This document shows positions 1,392-34,077 of a stretch of 44,935 bases of DNA, piece by piece. The stretch's first letter is position 1. Every line of letters begins with the position of its first letter. The position numbers and the translations under genes are program-made. Under the pieces are notes generated by a model. It ran no database searches, was not told the origin of the DNA, and was given only the letters and a program-made list of their open reading frames with translations. The DNA comes from a virus (lineage: Duplodnaviria > Heunggongvirae > Uroviricota > Caudoviricetes), in IMG/VR virus record IMGVR_UViG_643348551_000004. One strand, 5' to 3'.

Positions 1392-1641
1392 GGTTACCTC
1401 TGCTTTTTGAACGCATGTCACGTAACTTCTTAATGTGTTCTGCCGTTTCGATCTCTTCTGCTATCCGATCTGCATCAGCTTTATTCACAGGTTCAAAGTC
1501 ATGATTAAAGCGGAACATGCTGGCGATACATGTTCTGCCTTTTCGGATGTAGTGAACTTTGTTGTGGGTAGAACGCAGGATTTTGCAGGGAGTGCCGTGG
1601 TGGTCGACGTACCAGGTGTTAGGAAAAATGATTCTGAACAT
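1363..1641 (-). CDS. Small prophage protein of unknown function (92 aa; possibly DUF4222-like)
   Basis: ORF with a good SD (GAGGTG, 5 nt, then ATG). It is co-oriented with xis/int. The family assignment is from memory only. Confidence 0.55.
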   Translation of the reverse strand: MFRIIFPNTWYVDHHGTPCKILRSTHNKVHYIRKGRTCIASMFRFNHDFEPVNKADADRIAEEIETAEHIKKLRDMRSKSRGNHGIIQPHTR

Positions 1642-1906
1642 TTTTACACCTCAATTGGACGATGTTGAAATTTGCTGCTTTGAGGCCATCACAGTCCCCA
1701 TTGTTTGTTCTTAAGTTCGATCTCCTCCTGCAACTTGCACAAGTCCGACAACCCTGAACGGCCAGGCGTCTTCGTTCATCTATCGGATCGCCACACTCAC
1801 AACAATGAGTGGCAGATATAGCCTGGTGGTTCAGACGACGCATTTTTATTGCTGTATTGCGCTGTAATTCTTCGATTTCTGATGCTGAATCAATGATGTC
1901 TGCCAT
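1619..1906 (-). CDS. TraR/DksA-family C4 zinc-finger protein (95 aa as read)
   Basis: The motif CCECGDPIDERRR...CRTCASC is a CxxC-N17-CxxC pattern typical of phage TraR-like proteins. The tail after the last Cys looks frame-shifted (see findings). Confidence 0.65.
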   Translation of the reverse strand: MADIIDSASEIEELQRNTAIKMRRLNHQAISATHCCECGDPIDERRRLAVQGCRTCASCRRRSNLRTNNGDCDGLKAANFNIVQLRCKNVQNHFS

Positions 1907-1954
1907 CTTCCATTAATCTCTGAATTGTTGGTTAATACGCTTGAGGGTGAATGC

Positions 1955-1982
1955 GAATAATAAAAAAGGAGCCTGTAGCTCC
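1955..1982 (-). terminator. Possible intrinsic terminator (minus strand)
   Basis: Read on the minus strand it is GGAGC-TACAG-GCTCC followed by TTTTTTATTATT. The stem is short (5 bp), so this is weak. Confidence 0.35.
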
Positions 1983-2274
1983 CTGATGATTTTGCTTTTC
2001 ATGTTCATCGCTCCTTAAAGATGCCGTTTAACATGCCGATCGCCAGGCTTAAATGAGTCGGTGTGAATCCCTCAGCGTTACCGTTTCGCGGTGCTTCTTC
2101 AGTACGCTACGGCAAATGTTATTGATGCTCCTGTCTGGTGACAGCCATCGGGCTTGTATTATGTATAAGTTCTGATAAAAGCCTCCGATATATTAAATTT
2201 AAATAACGAAATTCATCTTCTTGATAAGTTGTGATAGCATCATTAAAAGTTTCAGTTCGTTGAGCAGGGATTAC

Positions 2275-2853
2275 ATGGTAAATCAGCAACAGCAACAGAT
2301 TAACGAAAATCTAAAAATTGAGGCAATCCGTTGGTATCAGAAGCTGCAGGAGATTACTTATCTTGAAGCAGGACAACACATGCGGGCTTTAAATCAGCTC
2401 ATGTGGCAAATCCCTAGTTTCGTAATTGCTGTCAATGGTGGGTTGTGGTATGCAACAACACTGGCAAATGAAAGTTCCCTATGGATTATCTTTGCAGTGT
2501 TAGCATTGTTTGATTTCACAACAATGATTACACTTTATCGCTTAAGGTCTTTAATTGGTTCGAAAATAGCACTACAAAAAAACATTGAAGATCCTTCAAA
2601 AAACTATATTTTAAATGAAATTACTAGAGACGCTGGATTTAAATTGCCCTCTAGCTATGATAATAAGGAAACTGGTTACATAGTAGTGTCGTGCTGGGCA
2701 GTAATGCTTATTGTTTGCTTCTTTGTTAATATTGCTGGAGTATATCATCCAAACTTGTTTTCAAAAGACATTTCACATAATACATACAAAGCAACAATTA
2801 AAAATATTGAGTCAGGATTATTTATCGAAGCAAAATCAGGATTATCAAAGTGA
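2275..2853 (+). CDS. Predicted 3-TM membrane protein with an N-terminal poly-Q, unknown function (192 aa from MVNQQQQQ)
   Basis: ATG at 2275 follows AGGGA. Hydrophobic spans are IPSFVIAVNGGLWYATTLA, LWIIFAVLALFDFTTMITLY and YIVVSCWAVMLIVCFFVNIAGVY. The region is AT-rich and on the strand opposite its neighbours. Confidence 0.7.
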   Translation: MVNQQQQQINENLKIEAIRWYQKLQEITYLEAGQHMRALNQLMWQIPSFVIAVNGGLWYATTLANESSLWIIFAVLALFDFTTMITLYRLRSLIGSKIALQKNIEDPSKNYILNEITRDAGFKLPSSYDNKETGYIVVSCWAVMLIVCFFVNIAGVYHPNLFSKDISHNTYKATIKNIESGLFIEAKSGLSK

Positions 2854-3452
2854 CTTCGTGGAAGTTTTATGACAATAATGCTGATCGCTTATTTGCCGAT
2901 TATATATCACTTGATTTTTACTCTATCTTTCAGGATGTTGAAGAGTTTATTTTACAATCTAAGGGTGTCTCTTTGGATGTCGGTTCAGGTTCCGGCCGTG
3001 ATGCTGCTGCGTTAGATGAATTAGGTTATAAAGTAATAGCTGTTGAACCAAGTGAAAAGATGCGAAATTTGGCATCTTCATATTATAAATCTAACCATAT
3101 TATATGGTTAGATGATTCATTGCCTTTTCTTCATAGTGTTAAAGCAATGAATCTAAAGTTCGACCTTATTTTAGTCAGTGCTGTATGGATGCATCTTTCA
3201 AAAAAAGAGCAAAAAATCTCACTAGAGACGCTAACTGATCTTTTAACATTGAATGGGAGAATGATAATTACATTGCGCTTAGGACCTCCCGAACCAGATA
3301 GAAACATTAACGTTGTTAATACTGAGGAACTTCTTGAGTTAGCGTCTCAGTTAGGTCTGAAAACATTGCGAGTTACGTCAATAAATAAAGATAGTTTTCA
3401 ACGTAACCAGATAACTTGGCAGAAAGTTGTATTATCAAAAAATAATGAGTAA
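2850..3452 (+). CDS. Class I SAM-dependent methyltransferase (200 aa, small-molecule/TehB-like size)
   Basis: Motif I is LDVGSGSGRDAAAL, an acidic post-I is AVEPS, and LILVSAVWMHL follows. The GTG start overlaps the upstream stop (GTGA), which suggests translational coupling. Confidence 0.8.
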   Translation: MTSWKFYDNNADRLFADYISLDFYSIFQDVEEFILQSKGVSLDVGSGSGRDAAALDELGYKVIAVEPSEKMRNLASSYYKSNHIIWLDDSLPFLHSVKAMNLKFDLILVSAVWMHLSKKEQKISLETLTDLLTLNGRMIITLRLGPPEPDRNINVVNTEELLELASQLGLKTLRVTSINKDSFQRNQITWQKVVLSKNNE

Positions 3453-3463
3453 ATAACTTAGTA

Positions 3464-4708
3464 TTATTCGCACAGACCGTAGCGTGAAGAGCAAACCTCT
3501 ATATCGAGACTTGCTTTTACAAGATCGTAGACCTTGCCACCGCGCCCTGTTTTTGCCCACTCTACGACTTCATAAACACCCGGAGAATTAAGATCTCCAC
3601 GAGGACCATAAAATCCTGACCAGTCGATGTGTTGCACATCAGGTTTTAGCCCAAAAAGTTGAATATTTCGACCAAGTGGCAGATTGAACTGTTTCATCCA
3701 GCGTTGGCTTATCTCTCCTACGCTCATCCAGTGTACCCATCTACTAGCAAGGCGTACCTTCAACTCCCATTGTTTGTGCTTTTTGATGTGCTCTGGCCAG
3801 CGCGCAGCCGTCTCTGCAATTTCCTCTTTGTTGCATAGCACGCAATTCATGCAGCCAACACGAGACGCACCTTGCATATAAAGTGGATTTGGCTTAATTC
3901 CGAAATATTTGTGAACTGCGAATACGTCCTCAGCCGTCCATTTGTGGAGCGGCAGGAAGTTGTAGAGAAAATCGGCGTCGCGCATATCGCGGGAAAACCT
4001 CTCATATCCAGCGCGCTTAGAGGACTCATCCGCGCGAACACCAGACCATTGTACGATAACATCGCCAGCATCAAGGAGCGGCTTTATGGCTGCGTCGAAA
4101 GCTATCTGAATTTTCAGTTCGTCTGTACAGAATCGGTCGCGCAGCATAGGGAACTTGCCATGCAGAAGGGAGCAATCCAAAAAGCTATTACCGGATGGGT
4201 GCATAACGGAAAGCGCAGCATCAAGAGCAGTTTCGAACTCAATTCCCCAGCGTTCTGCTGTGCGCTTCCAGGCTTGCCCGAATTTGGTGTCAGAACGTGC
4301 GAGGGAAGGCATGACTATGCCACGGTATGCTCCCATGCGGATCATCTGTCGTTTAGACCAGTTTTTTTGCAGATAAATTCGTCGTTTGGCAAAATCTTCT
4401 TCAGTGTAAATCCGCTTCACAACCTGCACAGGGCTACAACCGATCTGCTCATGAATGCTCCTGGCGAATTCGACAGTTAGATTATGCTCATTATCCGTGT
4501 CTGCCATAACAGCATGTACCTGTTTGCCGAATAATGTGTGCGCCACTGCGAGTGTGGCAGTGCTGTCTTTTCCTGCTGAATAATTCACGATTATCTTATG
4601 ATCATTAGGGATGCGAAATTCATTTATATATCTGTTGTAGGACTCTTCTATTTCGCGAATTTTCTTGCTGATGTCTGTTGGGACAATAATTATTGCTGCC
4701 TCGTTCAT
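3464..4708 (-). CDS. PP-loop ATP-pyrophosphatase / PAPS-reductase-family protein (414 aa)
   Basis: The PP-loop is NYSAGKDSTATL. Cys clusters are GCMNCVLC and the C-terminal VCSSRYGLCE. The SD is GGGAGGCGG, and the start overlaps the upstream orf60a-like stop (ATGA). Confidence 0.8.
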   Translation of the reverse strand: MNEAAIIIVPTDISKKIREIEESYNRYINEFRIPNDHKIIVNYSAGKDSTATLAVAHTLFGKQVHAVMADTDNEHNLTVEFARSIHEQIGCSPVQVVKRIYTEEDFAKRRIYLQKNWSKRQMIRMGAYRGIVMPSLARSDTKFGQAWKRTAERWGIEFETALDAALSVMHPSGNSFLDCSLLHGKFPMLRDRFCTDELKIQIAFDAAIKPLLDAGDVIVQWSGVRADESSKRAGYERFSRDMRDADFLYNFLPLHKWTAEDVFAVHKYFGIKPNPLYMQGASRVGCMNCVLCNKEEIAETAARWPEHIKKHKQWELKVRLASRWVHWMSVGEISQRWMKQFNLPLGRNIQLFGLKPDVQHIDWSGFYGPRGDLNSPGVYEVVEWAKTGRGGKVYDLVKASLDIEVCSSRYGLCE

Positions 4709-4869
4709 ACCGCCTCCCGTTTATTATTTATCTCCTCAGCCAGCCGCTGGGCTTTCAGCGGATTTCGGATAACAGAAAGCCCGGGAAATACCCAGCCTCG
4801 CTTTGTAACGGAGTAGACGAAAGTGATCGCGCCTACCCGGATATTATCGTGAGGATGCGTCATCGCCAT
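4705..4869 (-). CDS. Lambda orf60a-like small protein (54 aa; not in the ORF track)
   Basis: My translation is [54 protein letters not shown]. It matches lambda orf60a as I recall it until the last few residues. It overlaps the exo stop and the next gene's start. Confidence 0.6.
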
Positions 4870-5540
4870 TGCTCCCCAAATACAAAACCAATTTCAGCCA
4901 GTGCCTCGTCCATTTTTTCGATGAACTCCGGCACCATCTCGTCAAAACTCGCCATATACTTTTCATTCCGCTCAATCACGACATAATGCAGGCCTTCACG
5001 CTTCATGCGCGGGTCATAGTTGGCAAAGTACCAGGCATCTTTTCGCGTCACCCACATGCTGTACTGCACCTGGGCCATGTAAGCCGACTTTATGGCCTCG
5101 AAACCACCGAGCCGGAACTTCATGAAATCCCGGGAGGTAAACGGGCATTTCAGCTCAAGGCCATTGCCGTCACTGCATAAACCATCGGGAGAGCAGGCGG
5201 TGCGCATACTTTCGTCGCGATAGATGATCGGGGATTCAGTAACATTCACGCCGGAAGTGAATTCAAACAGAGTTCTGGCGTCGTTCTCGTACTGTTTTCC
5301 CCATGCCAGCGCCTTAGCATTAACTTCCGGAGCCACACCGGTGCAAACCTCAGCCAGCAGGGTGTGGAAGTAGGACATTTTCATGTCAGGCCACTTCTTT
5401 CCTGAGCGGGGCTTTGCTATCACGTTGTGAACTTCTGAAGCGGTGATGACGCCGAGCCGTAATTTGTGCCATGCATCATCCCCCTGTTCGACAGCTCTCA
5501 CGTCGATCCCGGTACGCTGCAGGATAATGTCCGGTGTCAT
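4860..5540 (-). CDS. exo: Lambda exonuclease (Red-alpha), 226 aa
   Basis: Near-identical to lambda Exo ([30 protein letters not shown]...GEQWR). Confidence 0.96.
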
Positions 5541-6322
5541 GCTGCCACCTTCTGCTCAGTGGCTTTCTGTTTCAGGAATCCAAGAGCTTTTACTGCTTCG
5601 GCCTGTGTCAGTTCTGACGATGCGCGAATGTCGCGGCGAAATATCTGGGAACAGAGCGGCAATAAGTCGTCATCCCATGTTTTGTCCAGGGCAATCAGCA
5701 GAGTGTTAATCTCCTGCATGGTTTCATCGTTAACCGGAGTGATGTCGCGTTCCGGCTGGCGTTCTGCAGTGTATGCGGTATTTTCGACAATGCGCTCGGC
5801 TTCATCCTTGTCATAGATACCAGCAAATCCGAAGGCCAGACGGGCACACTGAATCATGGCTTTATGCCGTAACATCCGTTTGGGATGCGACTGCCACGGC
5901 CCCGTGATTTCTCTGCCTTCGCGGGTTTTGAATGGTTCGCGGCGGCATTCATCCATCCATTCGGTAACGCAGATCGGATGATTACGGTCCTTGCGGTAAA
6001 TCCGGCATGTACAGGATTCGTTGTCCTGCTCAAAGTCCATGCCATCAAACTGCTGGTTTTCATTGATGATGCGGGACCAGCCATCAACGCCCACCACCGG
6101 AACGATGCCGTTCTGCTTATCAGGGAAGGCGTAAATTTCTTTCGTCCACGGATTAAGGCCGTACTGGTTGGCGACGATCAGCAATGCGATGAACTGCGCA
6201 TCGCTGGCATCGCCTTTAAATGCCGTCTGGCGAAGAGTGGTGATCAGTTCCTGTGGGTCGACAGAATCCATGCCGACACGTTCAGCCAGCTTCCCAGCCA
6301 GCGTTGCGAGTGCTGTACTCAT
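5537..6322 (-). CDS. bet: Bet single-strand annealing protein (Red-beta), 261 aa
   Basis: Near-identical to lambda Bet ([44 protein letters not shown]...). Confidence 0.96.
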
Positions 6323-6327
6323 CCGTT

Positions 6328-6624
6328 TTATACCTCTGAATCAATATCAACCTGATGGTGAGCAATGGTTTCAACCATGTACCGGATGTGTTCTGCCATG
6401 CGCTCCTGAAACTCAACATCGTCATCAAATGCACGGGTAATGGCTTTTTTGCTGGCCCCGCAGCGTTGTAAATGATCGATGCAGAGCGATTCAAACAAAT
6501 GCTGGGGCAGGCCTTTTTCCATGTCGTCTGCCAGTTCTGCCTCTTTCTCTTCACGGGCGATCTGCTGGTAGTGACGCGCCCAGCTCTGAGCCTCAAGACG
6601 ATCCTGAATGTAATAAGCGTTCAT
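6328..6624 (-). CDS. gam: Gam RecBCD inhibitor, short (98-aa) form
   Basis: [38 protein letters not shown]...VDIDSEV equals the C-terminal 98 aa of lambda Gam. Confidence 0.93.
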
Positions 6625-6699
6625 GGCTGAACTCCTGAAAATGGCTGTGAAAATATCGCCCGCGAAATGCCAGGCTGATTAGGAAAACAGGAAAGGGGA

Positions 6700-7110
6700 T
6701 TAGCGATTCAGGCCGTTACCGCGTCCGTCGAGAAAAACTTCCACGAGCAAATCACGGGTATAAGTGCGCTCGATGCCGCGATGCAGATAAAGCCGTCCGC
6801 GTAAATTAGCTGATGCAGTCCAGGTACCATCTTTGTGTTTGACCAGCATTCCTGGCATGACCGCACCGCGATTAACGGTCTGCGTTCCGTAATGTTGATG
6901 AACCATAAAAACTCCTGCCCGTAAGCTGGGCTGCTGAACATATAGAGACTTCTGCGCGTATTCAGGCGGTGGATGGCCGCCGGTTGTCATAACTAAGCCG
7001 CCTCGTTGAAGCGACTGAGGTATAAAGTGTTGTGTTGATTTCAGCTGGTCACACCGACGTTCACGCGTCCGCTTCACCCCTCGCACTCCCCGGAGCCTGC
7101 TGAAATTCAA
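6700..7110 (-). CDS. First ORF of the pL operon, unknown function; start ambiguous (TTG 7110, GTG 7077, ATG 6990, ATG 6906)
   Basis: This is the only sizeable ORF between pL and gam. The best SD (CAGGAG, 5 nt) precedes ATG 6906 and gives 68 aa. GTG 7077 (GGAG, 8 nt) would add an Arg-rich N-terminus, KRTRERR. Confidence 0.5.
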
Positions 7111-7183: not shown

Positions 7184-7212
7184 ATAATAGCTATTGCTAT
7201 TGATGATATCAA
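7184..7212 (-). promoter_or_regulatory. pL-like early-left promoter
   Basis: The minus strand reads TTGATA (7212-7207), a 17-nt spacer, then TATTAT (7189-7184). An operator motif lies in the spacer. It points towards gam/bet/exo. Confidence 0.7.
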
Positions 7213-7350: not shown

Positions 7351-7381
7351 CAAAAGAAAACCCGGCACGGTGGCCGGGTTT
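7351..7381 (-). terminator. Intrinsic terminator ending the repressor operon (t_imm analogue)
   Basis: The minus strand reads AAACCCGGC-CACCGT-GCCGGGTTTTCTTTT. A 6-bp GC stem (7361-7366 pairs with 7373-7378) is followed by a U-tract. It lies 75 nt after the 147-aa ORF stop. Confidence 0.8.
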
Positions 7382-7455: not shown

Positions 7456-7899
7456 TTAAGCACTAAAGAAAAAGTACATTGATAGCTTATAAAGTCCTGT
7501 TCCTGCAGCGATGATTGCTGGAACACCAAGCAATACCGCAAGCTTTGCGTCTGAAATCTTTCTATCGACAGCATCACTTGATGGCTTGTTTGTTAAGGAT
7601 TCTTTTATAGAGTCCAGACGTGCAAGAATAGTTATCATATTTTTGTCGATAGCTTTAACGTCTGTTTTAAGTTCATCAACGTCTCGTTTGATATGAGCAA
7701 CATCGGACTCCAGTTTTGCAACTTTTTCAGGCATGTTATCACTCCCAGACCCACTGCTACCACTTGATTGTAGCATGTCCCATCTTTTTCCAGATATACC
7801 TGCTAGCTGGGAAGACGCACTGGAGTGCAAACAAAATGATTCTGCCGCCTTTGCAATTTTATCATTTAGGTTTGGAGCTTCGTAATAATCGTGTTTCAT
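7456..7899 (-). CDS. Unknown 147-aa protein: Ser/Gly linker, heptad coiled-coil, C-terminal membrane anchor
   Basis: Clean ORF. Elements are SSGSSGSGSD, EKVAKLESDVAHIKRDVDELKTDVKAIDKNMITILARLDSIKESL and LAVLLGVPAIIAAGTGLYKLSMYFFF. It is reminiscent of XhlA-type tail-anchored proteins. Confidence 0.7.
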   Translation of the reverse strand: MKHDYYEAPNLNDKIAKAAESFCLHSSASSQLAGISGKRWDMLQSSGSSGSGSDNMPEKVAKLESDVAHIKRDVDELKTDVKAIDKNMITILARLDSIKESLTNKPSSDAVDRKISDAKLAVLLGVPAIIAAGTGLYKLSMYFFFSA

Positions 7900-7911
7900 A
7901 ATTAATTACGA

Positions 7912-8175
7912 TTAGTTTGTTTTAGCTTTGTCATGCTGGTCGCGAATGAAGTCAGCCAATTTAAGCATCAATTCTTCGGGCATTCTAATGGTTGCAATGT
8001 TGTACTTTATGTTCTCAACATCGTCACTTTCATCAACAGGCCATTCAGTTACATTATGAAAAAAAGAAATTGAACCTAGGCGCTGAGAGCCGTCACCAAA
8101 CGAAGAGTAGCCAAACGCGTCGGCGTATGCATCGACACAGTTATTTGATTTTTTAACAAGTGTTTTATTACTCAT
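7912..8175 (-). CDS. Unknown acidic 87-aa protein
   Basis: ORF with AAGG, 6 nt, then ATG. It ends 12 nt before the 147-aa ORF. The C-terminal ATIRMPEELMLKLADFIRD resembles a strand-helix (RHH-like) element. Confidence 0.65.
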   Translation of the reverse strand: MSNKTLVKKSNNCVDAYADAFGYSSFGDGSQRLGSISFFHNVTEWPVDESDDVENIKYNIATIRMPEELMLKLADFIRDQHDKAKTN

Positions 8176-29928: not shown

Positions 29929-30669
29929 ATGCCTGTACCAAATCCTGTAATGCCGGTGAAAGGTGCCGGGACCACGCTGTGGGTTTATAAGGGAAGCGGT
30001 GACCCTTATGCGAATCCGCTTTCAGACGTTGACTGGTCGCGTCTGGCAAAAGTTAAAGACCTGACGCCCGGCGAACTGACCGCTGAGTCCTATGACGACA
30101 GCTATCTCGATGATGAAGATGCAGACTGGACTGCGACCGGGCAGGGGCAGAAATCTGCCGGAGATACCAGCTTCACGCTGGCGTGGATGCCCGGAGAGCA
30201 GGGGCAGCAGGCGCTGCTGGCGTGGTTTAATGAAGGGGATACCCGAGCCTATAAAATCCGCTTCCCGAACGGCACGGTCGATGTGTTCCGCGGCTGGGTC
30301 AGCAGTATCGGTAAGGCGGTGACGGCGAAGGAAGTGATCACCCGCACGGTGAAAGTCACCAACGTGGGCCGTCCGTCGATGGCAGAAGATCGCAGCACGG
30401 TGACGGCGACAACCGGCATGACTGTGACGCCTGCCAGCACCTCGGTGGTGAAAGGGCAGAGCACCACGCTGACCGTGGCATTCCAGCCGGAAGGCGCAAC
30501 CGACAAGAGCTTCCGTGCGGTGTCTGCGGATAAAACAAAAGCCACCGTGTCGGTCAGTGGTATGACCATCACCGTGAAAGGTGTTGCTGCAGGCAAGGTC
30601 AACATTCCGGTCGTATCCGGTAATGGTGAACTTGCTGCGGTTGCAGAAATCACCGTCACCGCCAGTTAA
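29929..30669 (+). CDS. V: Major tail tube protein V (with C-terminal Ig-like domain), 246 aa
   Basis: [56 protein letters not shown]... equals lambda gpV. Confidence 0.96.
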
Positions 30670-30684
30670 TCCGGGGAGTCAGCG

Positions 30685-31107
30685 ATGTTCCTGAAAACCG
30701 AATCATTTGAACATAACGGTGTGACCGTCACGCTTTCTGAACTGTCAGCCCTGCAGCGAATTGAGCATCTCGCCCTGCTGAAACGACAGGCAGAACAGGC
30801 GGGATCCAGTCTCAATCGACAGGTGAGCGTGGAAGATCTCGTCAGAACCGGTGCTTTTCTGGTGGCGATGTCCCTGTGGCATAGCCATCCGCAGAAGACA
30901 AAGATGCCGTCCATGAATGAAGCCGTTAAACAAATTGAGCAGGAAGTGCTTACCACCTGGCCCACAGAGGCAATTGCTCAGGCTGAAAATGTGGTAATGC
31001 GTCTGTCCGGTATGTCTGAGTTTGTTGTGAATGATGCACCTGAACAGGCAGATGACGCCGGGCCAGCAGAGCCTGTTTCTGCGGGAAAGTGTTCGACGGT
31101 GAGCTGA
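30685..31107 (+). CDS. G: Tail assembly chaperone G, 140 aa
   Basis: MFLKTESFEHNGVTVTLSELSALQRIEHLALLKRQAEQA... equals lambda gpG. Confidence 0.95.
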   Translation: MFLKTESFEHNGVTVTLSELSALQRIEHLALLKRQAEQAGSSLNRQVSVEDLVRTGAFLVAMSLWHSHPQKTKMPSMNEAVKQIEQEVLTTWPTEAIAQAENVVMRLSGMSEFVVNDAPEQADDAGPAEPVSAGKCSTVS

Positions 31108-31523
31108 GTTTTGCCCTGAAACTGGCGCGTGAGATGGGGCGACCCGACTGGCGCGCCATGCTTGCCGGGATGTCATCCACGGAGTATGCCGACTGGCACC
31201 GCTTTTACAGTACCCATTATTTTCATGATGTTCTGCTGGATATGCACTTTTCCGGGCTGACGTACACCGTACTCAGCCTGTTTTTCAGCGATCCGGATAT
31301 GCATCCGCTGGATTTCAGTCTGCTGAACCGGCGCGAGGCTGACGAAGAGCCTGAAGATGATGTGCTGATGCAGAAAGCGGCAGGGCTTGCCGGAGGCGTC
31401 CGCTTTGGCCCGGACGGGAATGAAGTTATCCCCGCTTCCCCGGATGTGGCGGACATGACGGAGGATGACGTAATGCTGATGACAGTATCAGAAGGGATCG
31501 CAGGAGGAGTCCGGTATGGCTGA
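30685..31523 (+). CDS. T: Tail assembly chaperone G-T fusion, made by a programmed -1 frameshift
   Basis: After a slip at G GGA AAG (31083-31089), the -1 frame continues as GKVFDGELSFALKLAREMGRPDWRAMLAGMSSTEYADWHRFY... to 31523, as in lambda. Confidence 0.88.
31083..31089 (+). promoter_or_regulatory. Slippery heptamer GGGAAAG for the G/GT -1 frameshift
   Basis: An exact lambda-type heptamer lies 6 codons before the G stop. Confidence 0.88.
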
Positions 31524-34077
31524 ACCGGTAGGCGATCTGGTCGTTGATTTGAGTCTGGATGCGGCCAGATTTGACGAGCAGATGGCCAGAGTCAGGCGTC
31601 ATTTTTCCGGTACGGAAAGTGATGCGAAAAAAACAGCGGCAGTCGTTGAACAGTCGATGAACCGGCAGGCGCTGGCTGCACAGAAAGCGGGAATTTCCGT
31701 CGGGCAGTATAAAGCCGCCATGCGTATGCTGCCTGCGCAGTTCACTGACGTGGCCACGCAGCTTGCAGGCGGGCAAAGTCCGTGGCTGATCCTGCTGCAA
31801 CAGGGGGGTCAGGTGAAGGACTCCTTCGGCGGGATGATCCCCATGTTCCGGGGGCTTGCCGGTGCGATCACCCTGCCGATGGTGGGGGCTACCTCGCTGG
31901 CGGTGGCGACCGGAGCGCTGGCGTATGCCTGGTATCAGGGCAACTCAACCCTGTCCGATTTCAACAAAACGCTGGTCCTTTCCGGCAATCAGGCGGGACT
32001 GACGGCAGATCGTATGCTGGTCCTGTCCAGAGCCGGGCAGGCGGCAGGGCTGACGTTTAACCAGACCAGCGAGTCACTCAGCGCACTGGTTAAGGCGGGG
32101 GTAAGCGGTGAGGCTCAGATTGCGTCCATCAGCCAGAGTGTGGCGCGTTTCTCCTCTGCATCCGGCGTGGAGGTGGACAAGGTCGCTGAAGCCTTCGGGA
32201 AGCTGACCACAGACCCGACGTCGGGGCTGACGGCGATGGCACGCCAGTTCCATAACGTGACGGCGGAGCAGATTGCGTATGTTGCTCAGTTGCAGCGTTC
32301 CGGCGATGAAGCCGGGGCATTGCAGGCGGCGAACGAGGCCGCAACGAAAGGGTTTGATGACCAGACCCGACGCTTGAAAGAGAACATGGGCACGCTGGAA
32401 ACCTGGGCAGACAGGACAGCACGGGCATTCAAATCCATGTGGGATGCGGTGCTGGATATTGGTCGTCCTGATACCGCGCAGGAGATGCTGATTAAGGCAG
32501 AGGCCGCGTTTAAGAAAGCGGACGATATCTGGAATCTGCGCAAGGATGATTATTTTGTTAACGATGAAGCGCGGGCGCGTTACTGGGATGATCGTGAAAA
32601 GGCCCGTCTTGCGCTTGAAGTCGCCCGAAAGAAGGCTGAGCAGCAGAGTCAACAGGACAAAAATGCGCAGCAGCAGAGCGATACCGAAGCGTCACGGCTG
32701 AAATATACCGAAGAGGCGCAGAAGGCTTACGAACGGCTGCAGACGCCGCTGGAGAAATATACCGCCCGTCAGGAAGAACTGAACAAGGCACTGAAAGACG
32801 GGAAAATCCTGCAGGCGGATTACAACACGCTGATGGCGGCGGCGAAAAAGGATTATGAAGCGACGCTGAAAAAGCCGAAACAGTCCGGCGTGAAGGTGTC
32901 TGCGGGCGATCGTCAGGAAGACAGTGCTCATGCTGCCCTGCTGACGCTTCAGGCAGAACTCCGGACGCTGGAGAAGCATGCCGGAGCAAATGAGAAAATC
33001 AGCCAGCAGCGCCGGGATTTGTGGAAGGCGGAGAGTCAGTTCGCGGTACTGGAGGAGGCGGCGCAACGTCGCCAGCTGTCTGCACAGGAGAAATCCCTGC
33101 TGGCGCATAAAGATGAGACGCTGGAGTACAAACGCCAGCTGGCTGCACTTGGCGACAAGGTTACGTATCAGGAGCGCCTGAACGCGCTGGCGCAGCAGGC
33201 GGATAAATTCGCACAGCAGCAACGGGCAAAACGGGCCGCCATTGATGCGAAAAGCCGGGGGCTGACTGACCGGCAGGCAGAACGGGAAGCCACGGAACAG
33301 CGCCTGAAGGAACAGTATGGCGATAATCCGCTGGCGCTGAATAACGTCATGTCAGAGCAGAAAAAGACCTGGGCGGCTGAAGACCAGCTTCGCGGGAGCT
33401 GGATGGCAGGCCTGAAGTCCGGCTGGAGTGAGTGGGAAGAGAGCGCCACGGACAGTATGTCGCAGGTAAAAAGTGCAGCCACGCAGACCTTTGATGGTAT
33501 TGCACAGAATATGGCGGCGATGCTGACCGGCAGTGAGCAGAACTGGCGCAGCTTCACCCGTTCCGTGCTGTCCATGATGACAGAAATTCTGCTTAAGCAG
33601 GCAATGGTGGGGATTGTCGGGAGTATCGGCAGCGCCATTGGCGGGGCTGTTGGTGGCGGCGCATCCGCGTCAGGCGGTACAGCCATTCAGGCCGCTGCGG
33701 CGAAATTCCATTTTGCAACCGGAGGATTTACGGGAACCGGCGGCAAATATGAGCCAGCGGGGATTGTTCACCGTGGTGAATTTGTCTTCACGAAGGAGGC
33801 AACCAGCCGGATTGGCGTGGGGAATCTTTACCGGCTGATGCGCGGCTATGCCACCGGCGGTTATGTCGGTACACCGGGCAGCATGGCAGACAGCCGGTCG
33901 CAGGCGTCCGGGACGTTTGAGCAGAATAACCATGTGGTGATTAACAACGACGGCACGAACGGGCAGATAGGTCCGGCTGCTCTGAAGGCGGTGTATGACA
34001 TGGCCCGCAAGGGTGCCCGTGATGAAATTCAGACACAGATGCGTGATGGTGGCCTGTTCTCCGGAGGTGGACGATGA
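31516..34077 (+). CDS. H: Tape measure protein H, 853 aa
   Basis: Lambda length and sequence (MAEPVGDLVVDLSLDAARFDEQMARVRRHFSGTESDAKKTAAVVEQS...). Confidence 0.96.
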   Translation: MAEPVGDLVVDLSLDAARFDEQMARVRRHFSGTESDAKKTAAVVEQSMNRQALAAQKAGISVGQYKAAMRMLPAQFTDVATQLAGGQSPWLILLQQGGQVKDSFGGMIPMFRGLAGAITLPMVGATSLAVATGALAYAWYQGNSTLSDFNKTLVLSGNQAGLTADRMLVLSRAGQAAGLTFNQTSESLSALVKAGVSGEAQIASISQSVARFSSASGVEVDKVAEAFGKLTTDPTSGLTAMARQFHNVTAEQIAYVAQLQRSGDEAGALQAANEAATKGFDDQTRRLKENMGTLETWADRTARAFKSMWDAVLDIGRPDTAQEMLIKAEAAFKKADDIWNLRKDDYFVNDEARARYWDDREKARLALEVARKKAEQQSQQDKNAQQQSDTEASRLKYTEEAQKAYERLQTPLEKYTARQEELNKALKDGKILQADYNTLMAAAKKDYEATLKKPKQSGVKVSAGDRQEDSAHAALLTLQAELRTLEKHAGANEKISQQRRDLWKAESQFAVLEEAAQRRQLSAQEKSLLAHKDETLEYKRQLAALGDKVTYQERLNALAQQADKFAQQQRAKRAAIDAKSRGLTDRQAEREATEQRLKEQYGDNPLALNNVMSEQKKTWAAEDQLRGSWMAGLKSGWSEWEESATDSMSQVKSAATQTFDGIAQNMAAMLTGSEQNWRSFTRSVLSMMTEILLKQAMVGIVGSIGSAIGGAVGGGASASGGTAIQAAAAKFHFATGGFTGTGGKYEPAGIVHRGEFVFTKEATSRIGVGNLYRLMRGYATGGYVGTPGSMADSRSQASGTFEQNNHVVINNDGTNGQIGPAALKAVYDMARKGARDEIQTQMRDGGLFSGGGR

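Follow-up and report, generated by a model that had tools for sequence, protein, structure and literature searches.

According to a review of the Dnd machinery (PMC10853773), DndC, one of the sulfur-inserting subunits of DNA phosphorothioation systems, is a PP-loop ATPase in which three cysteines hold a 4Fe-4S centre and a separate cysteine dyad is thought to take sulfur from DndA. SspD and BrxP are further such subunits of the same superfamily. In phages, the superfamily is represented by Orf84 of coliphage 186 and its relatives in P2-like phages, by phiE125 gp57, phi644-2 gp56 and Stenotrophomonas S1 gp30 (family PHROG 424), whose genes lie in early lytic operons and are translationally coupled to their neighbours. 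We found no experimental study of this Orf84-type family in the literature, and most phage genome papers label such genes as sulfur-assimilation helpers without any test. Here, we analysed a viral stretch of 44,935 nucleotides (IMG/VR record IMGVR_UViG_643348551_000004; hereafter the window), which is Escherichia phage phi458, a lambda-like E. coli prophage, and focused on its Orf4, a 414-amino acid (aa) protein of the phosphoadenosine phosphosulfate (PAPS) reductase superfamily, hereafter T. The results showed that T shares with the Orf84 group the PP-loop, three cysteines and a C-terminal C-x6-C pair, and that it is a long subtype at a new insertion site within a family that is already widely annotated.

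Family, fold and cysteine signature of T

T is encoded by an open reading frame (ORF) with an ATG start at window positions 3464..4708 on the minus strand. Orf4 of Escherichia phage phi458 (OP434518.1; protein UYE91737.1), labelled 'putative transcriptional regulator' in GenBank, matches it with 100% identity. The exo-int region of the window (2000-7000) shares 99.3% identity with a lambdoid E. coli prophage that is integrated next to a tRNA-Arg gene, beside intD (hereafter the closely related prophage), and in which the RefSeq name of T is 'phosphoadenosine phosphosulfate reductase family protein'. Among 5426 complete E. coli genomes, 28 carried T, each time after a DUF1317 gene. Phage phi458 can be induced and plaques on E. 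coli MC1061, which its GenBank record gives as the host; the phi458 paper makes no mention of T.

Profile comparisons placed T in the PAPS_reduct family (PF01507) with 75.5 bits against a cut-off of 22.5 (E = 6.8e-21), the match covering residues 39-290 and profile positions 2-173 of 175 and being split by an insertion. T also matched the PHROG 424 profile 'phosphoadenosine phosphosulfate reductase' (7.2e-66), and a large protein database returned 487 homologues at E<=1e-5, which, among the matches listed, were mostly 70-85% identical and came from other enterobacterial genera. These three results show that T is not a chance ORF. In a full HMMER search of 1.84 billion representatives, 3078 clusters passed E<=1e-3 and 249 of these clusters passed E<=1e-30; single-domain proteins of 300-380 aa made up almost the whole set. 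Full-length phage relatives with 31-36% identity over T residues 40-414 included 186 Orf84 (34.7%), proteins of P2-like phages, phiE125 gp57 and S1 gp30. The long form of T is due to an N-terminal helix (residues 1-36) and insertions at about residues 118-160 and 330-375, and family members of 300-345 aa are without the helix and both insertions.

To identify invariant residues, we scored 27 close homologues and an alignment of 23 diverse members. The results revealed five invariant cysteines in a 3+2 pattern (C194, C286 and C289, plus C406 and C413). The PP-loop (NYSAGKDSTATL, residues 42-53; 4550..4585, minus strand) is of the ATP type in this family, reading SGGKDS in most members, and its residues S44, G46, K47, D48 and S49 were invariant family-wide. 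Further residues invariant among the diverse members were D70, T71, E74, H75, R225, E228 and S229. The first cysteine lies in RFCTDELK (residues 192-199; 4112..4135, minus strand), where F193-C194-T195-x-E197-L198-K199 was invariant in the 23 diverse members and C194 and K199 were invariant in both sets. C194 is the predicted first iron-sulfur (Fe-S) ligand, and the motif would correspond to CC...RK of adenosine phosphosulfate (APS) reductase. The second and third cysteines form a conserved CxxC (C286 and C289; 3842..3853, minus strand) within GCMNCVLC (residues 285-292). In this segment G285-C286-M287-x-C289 was invariant in the diverse members, while residue 292 was L, S, F or V in relatives, even in close ones, and phmmer aligned VGCMNC of T with the Fe-S motif IGCEPC of APS reductase 2goy. 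The remaining two cysteines make up the pair C406-S-S-R-Y-G-L-C413 (3470..3493, minus strand), which is followed by E414 and the stop codon in VCSSRYGLCE (residues 405-414). This pair was also invariant, with C406-S-S-x-Y-G-L-C413 followed by E, D or G at the C-terminus of the diverse members, and even the distant members P0166 and P0264 retain the C-x6-C ending. T therefore carries the complete PHROG 424 signature (SxGKDS, FCTxELK, GCMxC and the C-terminal C-x6-C). A preliminary description of this locus had pointed to a PP-loop and to the cysteine clusters GCMNCVLC and VCSSRYGLCE; the PP-loop, the CxxC and the C-terminal pair proved invariant, but C292 is not conserved, and the first cluster amounts to a conserved CxxC.

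An AlphaFold2 model of T, built with 27 homologues, gave confident positions for residues 10-320 and poor ones for the last 90. In Foldseek searches with this model, CysH and APS reductases ranked highest (E 2e-7 to 7e-6), followed by TtuA and GMP synthase; the best solved-structure matches were 6vpu, 4bwv, 1sur and 2goy, and no DndC structure was found. The predicted fold is the PP-loop/adenine-nucleotide alpha-hydrolase fold, which by itself names no substrate.

T was then compared with curated families, scores being given as bits of T over the family cut-off (NCBIfam). By these thresholds or by partner genes, T is not CysH, DndC, SspD, BrxP, IbrA or QueC. The usual literature annotation would make it an auxiliary metabolic gene, a genuine PAPS or APS reductase boosting host sulfate assimilation, and the PAPS_reduct domain and the leading Foldseek matches to CysH and APS reductases are in line with that. 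We nevertheless regard this explanation as highly improbable. T scored far below the cut-offs of the CysH models (TIGR00434, cysH, 35.1/165.1; TIGR02057, PAPS_reductase, 23.7/254.2; NF002537, PRK02090, 50.8/154) and of the APS reductase model (TIGR02055, 47.1/235.3). The C-terminal catalytic motif of CysH, ECGLH, is not found in T, which ends in ...VCSSRYGLCE and so has C-x6-C-E in its place; where the CC pair of the four-cysteine Fe-S site (CC...CxxC) of APS reductase would be expected, T has the single C194, the CxxC being present and aligned. Common to T and the CysH/APS reductases are the GCxxC, which aligns with the Fe-S CxxC of APS reductase, and the position of the reactive cysteine on a C-terminal tail. 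T differs from them in its ATP-type PP-loop, in being 170 residues longer, and in a genomic context unrelated to sulfur assimilation, an early lytic operon beside DNA enzymes with no cys genes. In addition, E. coli already possesses its own cysH. The possibility, left standing in the preliminary description, that T might turn out to be a plain sulfate-assimilation CysH orthologue was thus not borne out.

The similarity to SspD, BrxP and DndC that had been noticed earlier was recovered as partial PADLOC matches (SspD, 6e-19, profile positions 74-211 of 277; BrxP, 4e-16, positions 244-334 of 779; DndC, 6e-9), which cover the C-terminal half of the domain; T has a canonical PP-loop. The three-cysteine set and cysteine pair of the T family resemble, as far as the published description goes, the pattern reported for DndC (PMC10853773). 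T scored 32.2/290.4 against the DndC model TIGR03183 and 30.1/536 against NF005316, and the annotations of the closely related prophage and of the first 10.8 kb of the phi458 record (12 features) include no DndD/DndE or DndA/B. Likewise, no SspA/B/C, DUF4007, PglZ, BrxL or BrxC is annotated in the closely related prophage. Unlike the sulfur-inserting subunits DndC, SspD and BrxP, T is solitary and phage-borne, and it is about 100-350 residues shorter than the DndC and BrxP profiles.

IbrA resembles T in having a PAPS_reduct domain on a prophage, but T gave no hit at E<=0.01 to DUF3440, the C-terminal domain of IbrA, and a literature search on IbrA/IbrB brought up only unrelated papers. As the preliminary description had stated, a ParB-like partner is missing: none is annotated in the closely related prophage or among those 12 phi458 features. 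Some T relatives do adjoin a ParB-like gene (phiE125 gp58) or a DndB-like gene (locus L036, see below), which may be compared with IbrB. For QueC, T reached 18.2/22 with the Pfam model, through the PP-loop only, 21.2/378 with NF008317 and 17.7/150 with TIGR00364, and no FolE, QueD, QueE or DpdA pathway gene is annotated in the closely related prophage.

Related genes were also seen on plasmids. The plasmid hits H102, H104 and H121 are further orphan PAPS-reductase-like genes with no dnd clusters. In total, 1289 plasmid records, 1000 of them typed as conjugative, matched T weakly and partially (E<=0.05), many of those among the matches listed with about 29% identity over residues 187-315. The IncC plasmid NZ_CP019053.1 (L144, record positions 2590-3705) carries a 371-aa 'PAPS reductase family' gene 1.5 kb from a replication-initiator gene.

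Junction of T with the red operon

The conserved gene for T occupies the distal end of the red (early-left) operon, where its translation is coupled to that of exo-orf60a. As read directly from the DNA, the ATG of T (4708-4706) shares bases with the TGA (4707-4705) that ends a 54-aa ORF at 4705..4869 on the minus strand. The coupling signal (4705..4718, minus strand) comprises GGGAGG (4718-4713), a 4-nt spacer and the ATGA start/stop overlap (4708-4705). The 54-aa ORF is DUF1317/orf60a-like (Pfam PF07026, 8.2e-34, profile positions 1-52 of 60), is truncated at its C-terminus, and overlaps exo (4860..5540, YqaJ domain) as well as T. In lambda, orf60a ends in ...NNKRGAVCTKHLLLS (also quoted as ...KRGAVCTKHLLLS), whereas the window ORF ends in ...NNKREAV*, which indicates that the C-terminus has been replaced. 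A blastn comparison with NC_001416 gave 97% DNA identity to lambda across gam-bet-exo-orf60a, ending at window 4697. The loss of the normal orf60a C-terminus and the ATGA overlap with the start of the 414-aa protein, both proposed earlier, were therefore upheld.

The lambda-like stretch on the right covers window 4697-6706 (lambda 31185-33193, in the 96-97% range), and a second one covers window 1712-2125 (lambda 30418-30833, 96%, blastn). Between these flanks, with clean junctions, lies a mosaic block of 2.57 kb (2126..4696) that holds T plus two opposite-strand genes and replaces lambda 30834-31184, that is orf61, orf63 and the orf60a end. The preliminary description had counted orf63, orf61, ea22 and ea8.5 as replaced; this held for orf61 and orf63, but the positions of ea22 and ea8.5 fall outside the lambda segment exchanged for the block. 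By tblastn, lambda ea22, ea8.5, xis, int, N, cIII and kil had no match in the window. The stretch 1712-2125 matches the unannotated ea22-orf61 gap of lambda. In the window, it is overlapped by a zinc-finger ORF of the TraR/DksA type (1619..1906) and by a ZapA-like pseudogene for which the annotation comes from the closely related prophage.

The gene order suggests that T is made early in lytic growth, as do two comparisons. Firstly, in the GenBank annotation of 186, orf84 belongs to the antiterminated pR operon of early lytic growth and is described as 'unknown function; not essential; translation to end of orf84 appears necessary for translation of A'. Secondly, the lambda exo-xis genes are reported (PMC8614690) to be expressed at the earliest lytic stage. 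Gene order is likewise the ground for expression from pL in lytic growth only, which the preliminary description proposed and which may apply to T. Unlike the 186 Orf84 group, T follows exo/orf60a and not a DNA methyltransferase or replication gene.

DNA methyltransferases beside T relatives and a possible function

To examine the neighbourhoods of T relatives, the ORFs of 79 viral loci were clustered, and 43 dereplicated loci were used for a neighbour scan of Pfam families among 130 neighbours of >=80 aa within +-2 genes of the T homologue, with 100 genes at +-5/6 positions as controls. T homologues occurred after exo-DUF1317 in lambdoids, between Dam and gpA in P2/186-like elements, and in further unclassified settings. 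No neighbour was common to all 79 viral loci, and a universal partner gene was rejected; the search for a lost partner suggested in the preliminary description yielded none, and what recurred was DNA methyltransferases. These adjoined T relatives in 15 of the 43 loci and belonged to several Pfam families: the 130 neighbours included 7 C5-cytosine, 4 D12-class adenine, 3 MT-A70 and 1 Dam (PF05869) methyltransferase matches, besides 1 DndB. None of these five was among the top 25 of 40 families of the control genes, and since only the top 25 were compared, single methyltransferase occurrences in the controls are possible.

Individual loci showed closer ties. In the P2-like element of Enterobacter soli pENTAS02 (L145), the order is Dam - T homologue - gpA with a Dam/T stop/start overlap, and in phiE125 (L149, 44585-46439) the DNA methyltransferase gene gp56 overlaps the T homologue gp57, which is followed by the ParB-like gp58. 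Fusions were found as well: in P0107, an MT-A70 domain precedes a T copy that is 54% identical, and in P0125 a PHROG 799 DNA methyltransferase (3e-50, NPPF motif) precedes the T copy. The T family is thus tied to DNA methyltransferases non-randomly, by adjacency, translational coupling and fusion. The P0125 N-terminal domain had also been considered as a homologue of the class I methyltransferase encoded next to T in phi458; this was rejected (BLASTP E 0.81). The gene orders of phiE125 and E. soli, with their overlapping stops and starts, suggest fixed early-operon modules. In a further group of loci (L057, L031, L030 and others; cluster c21), a dATP/dGTP pyrophosphohydrolase plus DUF551 gene (Pfam 3.1e-47) lies directly downstream, and its product is another nucleotide-directed neighbour of the T family.

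A second candidate substrate is RNA. As a TtuA/TtcA-like Fe-S thiolase, or as another kind of PP-loop modifier, T could act on host or phage tRNA at an early stage of infection, perhaps tuning translation or shielding tRNAs from anticodon nucleases. We judge this distinctly unlikely, as the profiles place T in PAPS_reduct and not in the TtuA or TilS families, and the recurrent neighbours and fusion partners are DNA methyltransferases and not RNA enzymes.

From the sequence evidence, we tentatively propose that T is an orphan phage-type, ATP-dependent, DndC-like sulfur-transfer enzyme (PHROG 424, prototype 186 Orf84) that acts on DNA as a counter-defence, a proposal to which we give somewhat less than an even chance. 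In such an enzyme, C194, C286 and C289 would hold a [4Fe-4S] cluster, and sulfur from a host IscS-type persulfide would be passed to the C-terminal cysteine pair. ATP would serve adenylation, followed by thiolation of nucleic acid, most likely phage DNA, and the target on DNA could be the backbone, as for DndC, or a base. T might then self-mark the phage genome in the manner of an orphan methyltransferase, or counter modification-dependent immunity (Dnd/Ssp/BREX-4-like). Host factors, for instance IscS and Dam, might assist T in phi458, or it would act unaided.

The idea of DNA modification as counter-defence gains indirect support from methyltransferase adjacency and fusion and from an anti-Dnd result of Piel et al. 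(bioRxiv 10.1101/2021.05.05.442762), in which swapping two genes between Vibrio phages led to escape from host Dnd. The swapped genes were a PAPS-Dam fusion (p0018, phage 44E38.1) and its neighbour p0019 of unknown function (10.1101/2021.05.05.442762). This joining of a PAPS-type domain to Dam parallels the MT-A70 and PHROG 799 fusions to T, but the order is reversed, with PAPS N-terminal and Dam C-terminal. The PAPS domain (aa 4-175) is also shorter than T and therefore cannot carry the C-terminal C-x6-C tail. The counter-defence hypothesis itself is already in print (Nucleic Acids Res 2026, PMC13551039), where PAPS reductases in Aca-regulated anti-defence operons are proposed to help phages evade restriction-modification or phosphorothioate (PT) systems.

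How the PAPS-Dam fusion exerts its anti-Dnd effect is not established, and T could also act against defence by binding. It would then be a non-modifying antagonist or regulator that titrates IscS, DndD/E, SspB/C or a restriction module, or an IbrA-like co-activator, with its enzyme core serving as a binding scaffold. Binding-type phage anti-Dnd proteins are reported to exist (JSS1_004, PMC12345140), and the phi458 annotation as 'putative transcriptional regulator' would fit such a role. However, the PP-loop and five cysteines are invariant down to ~30% identity, which argues for catalysis, and T has neither a DUF3440 domain nor an IbrB/ParB partner. We consider antagonism by binding quite unlikely.

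Several points weigh against sulfur transfer to DNA. Within the exact family of T, no member has a known modification, substrate or phenotype, and the annotation of 186 orf84 reads 'not essential'. The partner ATPases and DNA-binding subunits on which DndC and SspD depend are not annotated in the closely related prophage, and that prophage is also without an annotated DNA methyltransferase. Methyltransferase adjacency could reflect a shared early or anti-restriction gene neighbourhood. The structure matches do not separate DNA-, tRNA- and small-molecule-directed PP-loop enzymes, and because the last 90 residues are poorly modelled, the cysteine geometry is not readable from the model. Finally, the PAPS domain of Piel et al. 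was not among the matches listed in our tblastn searches, and for that reason it may belong to another subfamily.

A more specific form of the sulfur-transfer proposal would make PHROG 424 a family of single-polypeptide DNA sulfur writers. The site would be given by a DNA methyltransferase (phage-encoded, fused or host Dam), the sulfur would come from IscS, and a PT or thio-base would be placed on phage DNA early in lytic growth. This version is unlikely; if true, a DndC-type modifier would for the first time be seen to stand alone, and phages would have a general answer to immunity based on PT.

Convergent gene pair, early-left control and wider meaning

The two opposite-strand genes of the mosaic block form a pair at 2275-3452 that converges on T, with stop codons 11 bp apart. 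The first (2275-2853, plus strand) encodes a membrane protein of 192 aa with no database match, and the second (2850-3452, plus strand), which overlaps it by GTGA, encodes a class I S-adenosylmethionine (SAM) methyltransferase of 200 aa that matches Methyltransf_11/25 and TehB-like models and also the methyltransferase part of PADLOC mad2. The GC content of the pair (0.34) differs from that of T (0.45-0.50) and of the red genes (0.52).

The pair and T might form a three-gene cassette, in which, for example, the methyltransferase would methylate the thiolated product of T, or T would be the lytic antidote to a two-gene exclusion system expressed in the lysogen. Relative to lambda, a single mosaic block contains all three genes, and the pair was found in the same number of complete E. 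coli genomes as T (28 of 5426), adjoining it in every record among the matches listed. In viral contigs, the pair stood beside a T homologue in ~11 of 14 dereplicated contigs, in three of which the homologue was of the short type and only 32% identical. Against this, 15 of 16 loci that keep the methyltransferase in species-representative genomes (Beta-/Alphaproteobacteria, Nostoc) were without T within 5 kb, and most T genes are without the pair. The opposite strands and the GC difference also speak against the cassette, as does a phage with a T homologue 85% identical to T (L036, IMGVR_UViG_3300009036_000063, 1063-2786), in which a DndB-family gene (DGQHR/ParB-like, Pfam 3.7e-31) plus a 195-aa ORF occupies the convergent position in place of the pair. 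The cassette is accordingly very unlikely, and the pair, which is conserved across Proteobacteria and Nostoc, was rejected as an obligate partner of T because it is autonomous in most cellular genomes. The presence of a DndB-like gene at the same spot in another phage gives the site the look of a moron hotspot, and on the simplest reading the pair is a moron in its own right, inserted at a hotspot that separates the int side from the end of the early-left operon.

Upstream, early-left control may differ from that of lambda, since no homologue of lambda N, cIII or kil was found. A promoter/terminator scan gave no enrichment and no convincing terminator between exo and T. A strong terminator-like hairpin at 7358-7381 (minus strand; 9-bp stem, 6 GC, T-rich tail) lies just upstream of the kil-like, gam, bet and exo genes, and after it, at 7184-7212 (minus strand), is the best promoter-like match of the region (TTGATA-17-TATTAT, 10/12). 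Two ORFs, at 7456-7899 (minus strand; 147 aa, with a C-terminal hydrophobic helix) and 7912-8175 (minus strand; 87 aa), separate the repressor gene from the hairpin, at the place where lambda has N.

Few accessory genes of temperate phages are as common as those named 'PAPS reductase', which are usually dismissed as sulfur-metabolism helpers. The lambdoid/186-type family is clearly not CysH; it has a DndC-like catalytic signature, lies in early lytic operons and has ties to DNA methyltransferases. If T does nothing detectable, a very frequent annotation would remain an open problem, and if it writes sulfur into DNA, both a novel type of self-modification in phages and a novel counter-defence would be added. 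Phage phi458, together with mature E. coli tools, offers a convenient system for finding the role of the whole family.

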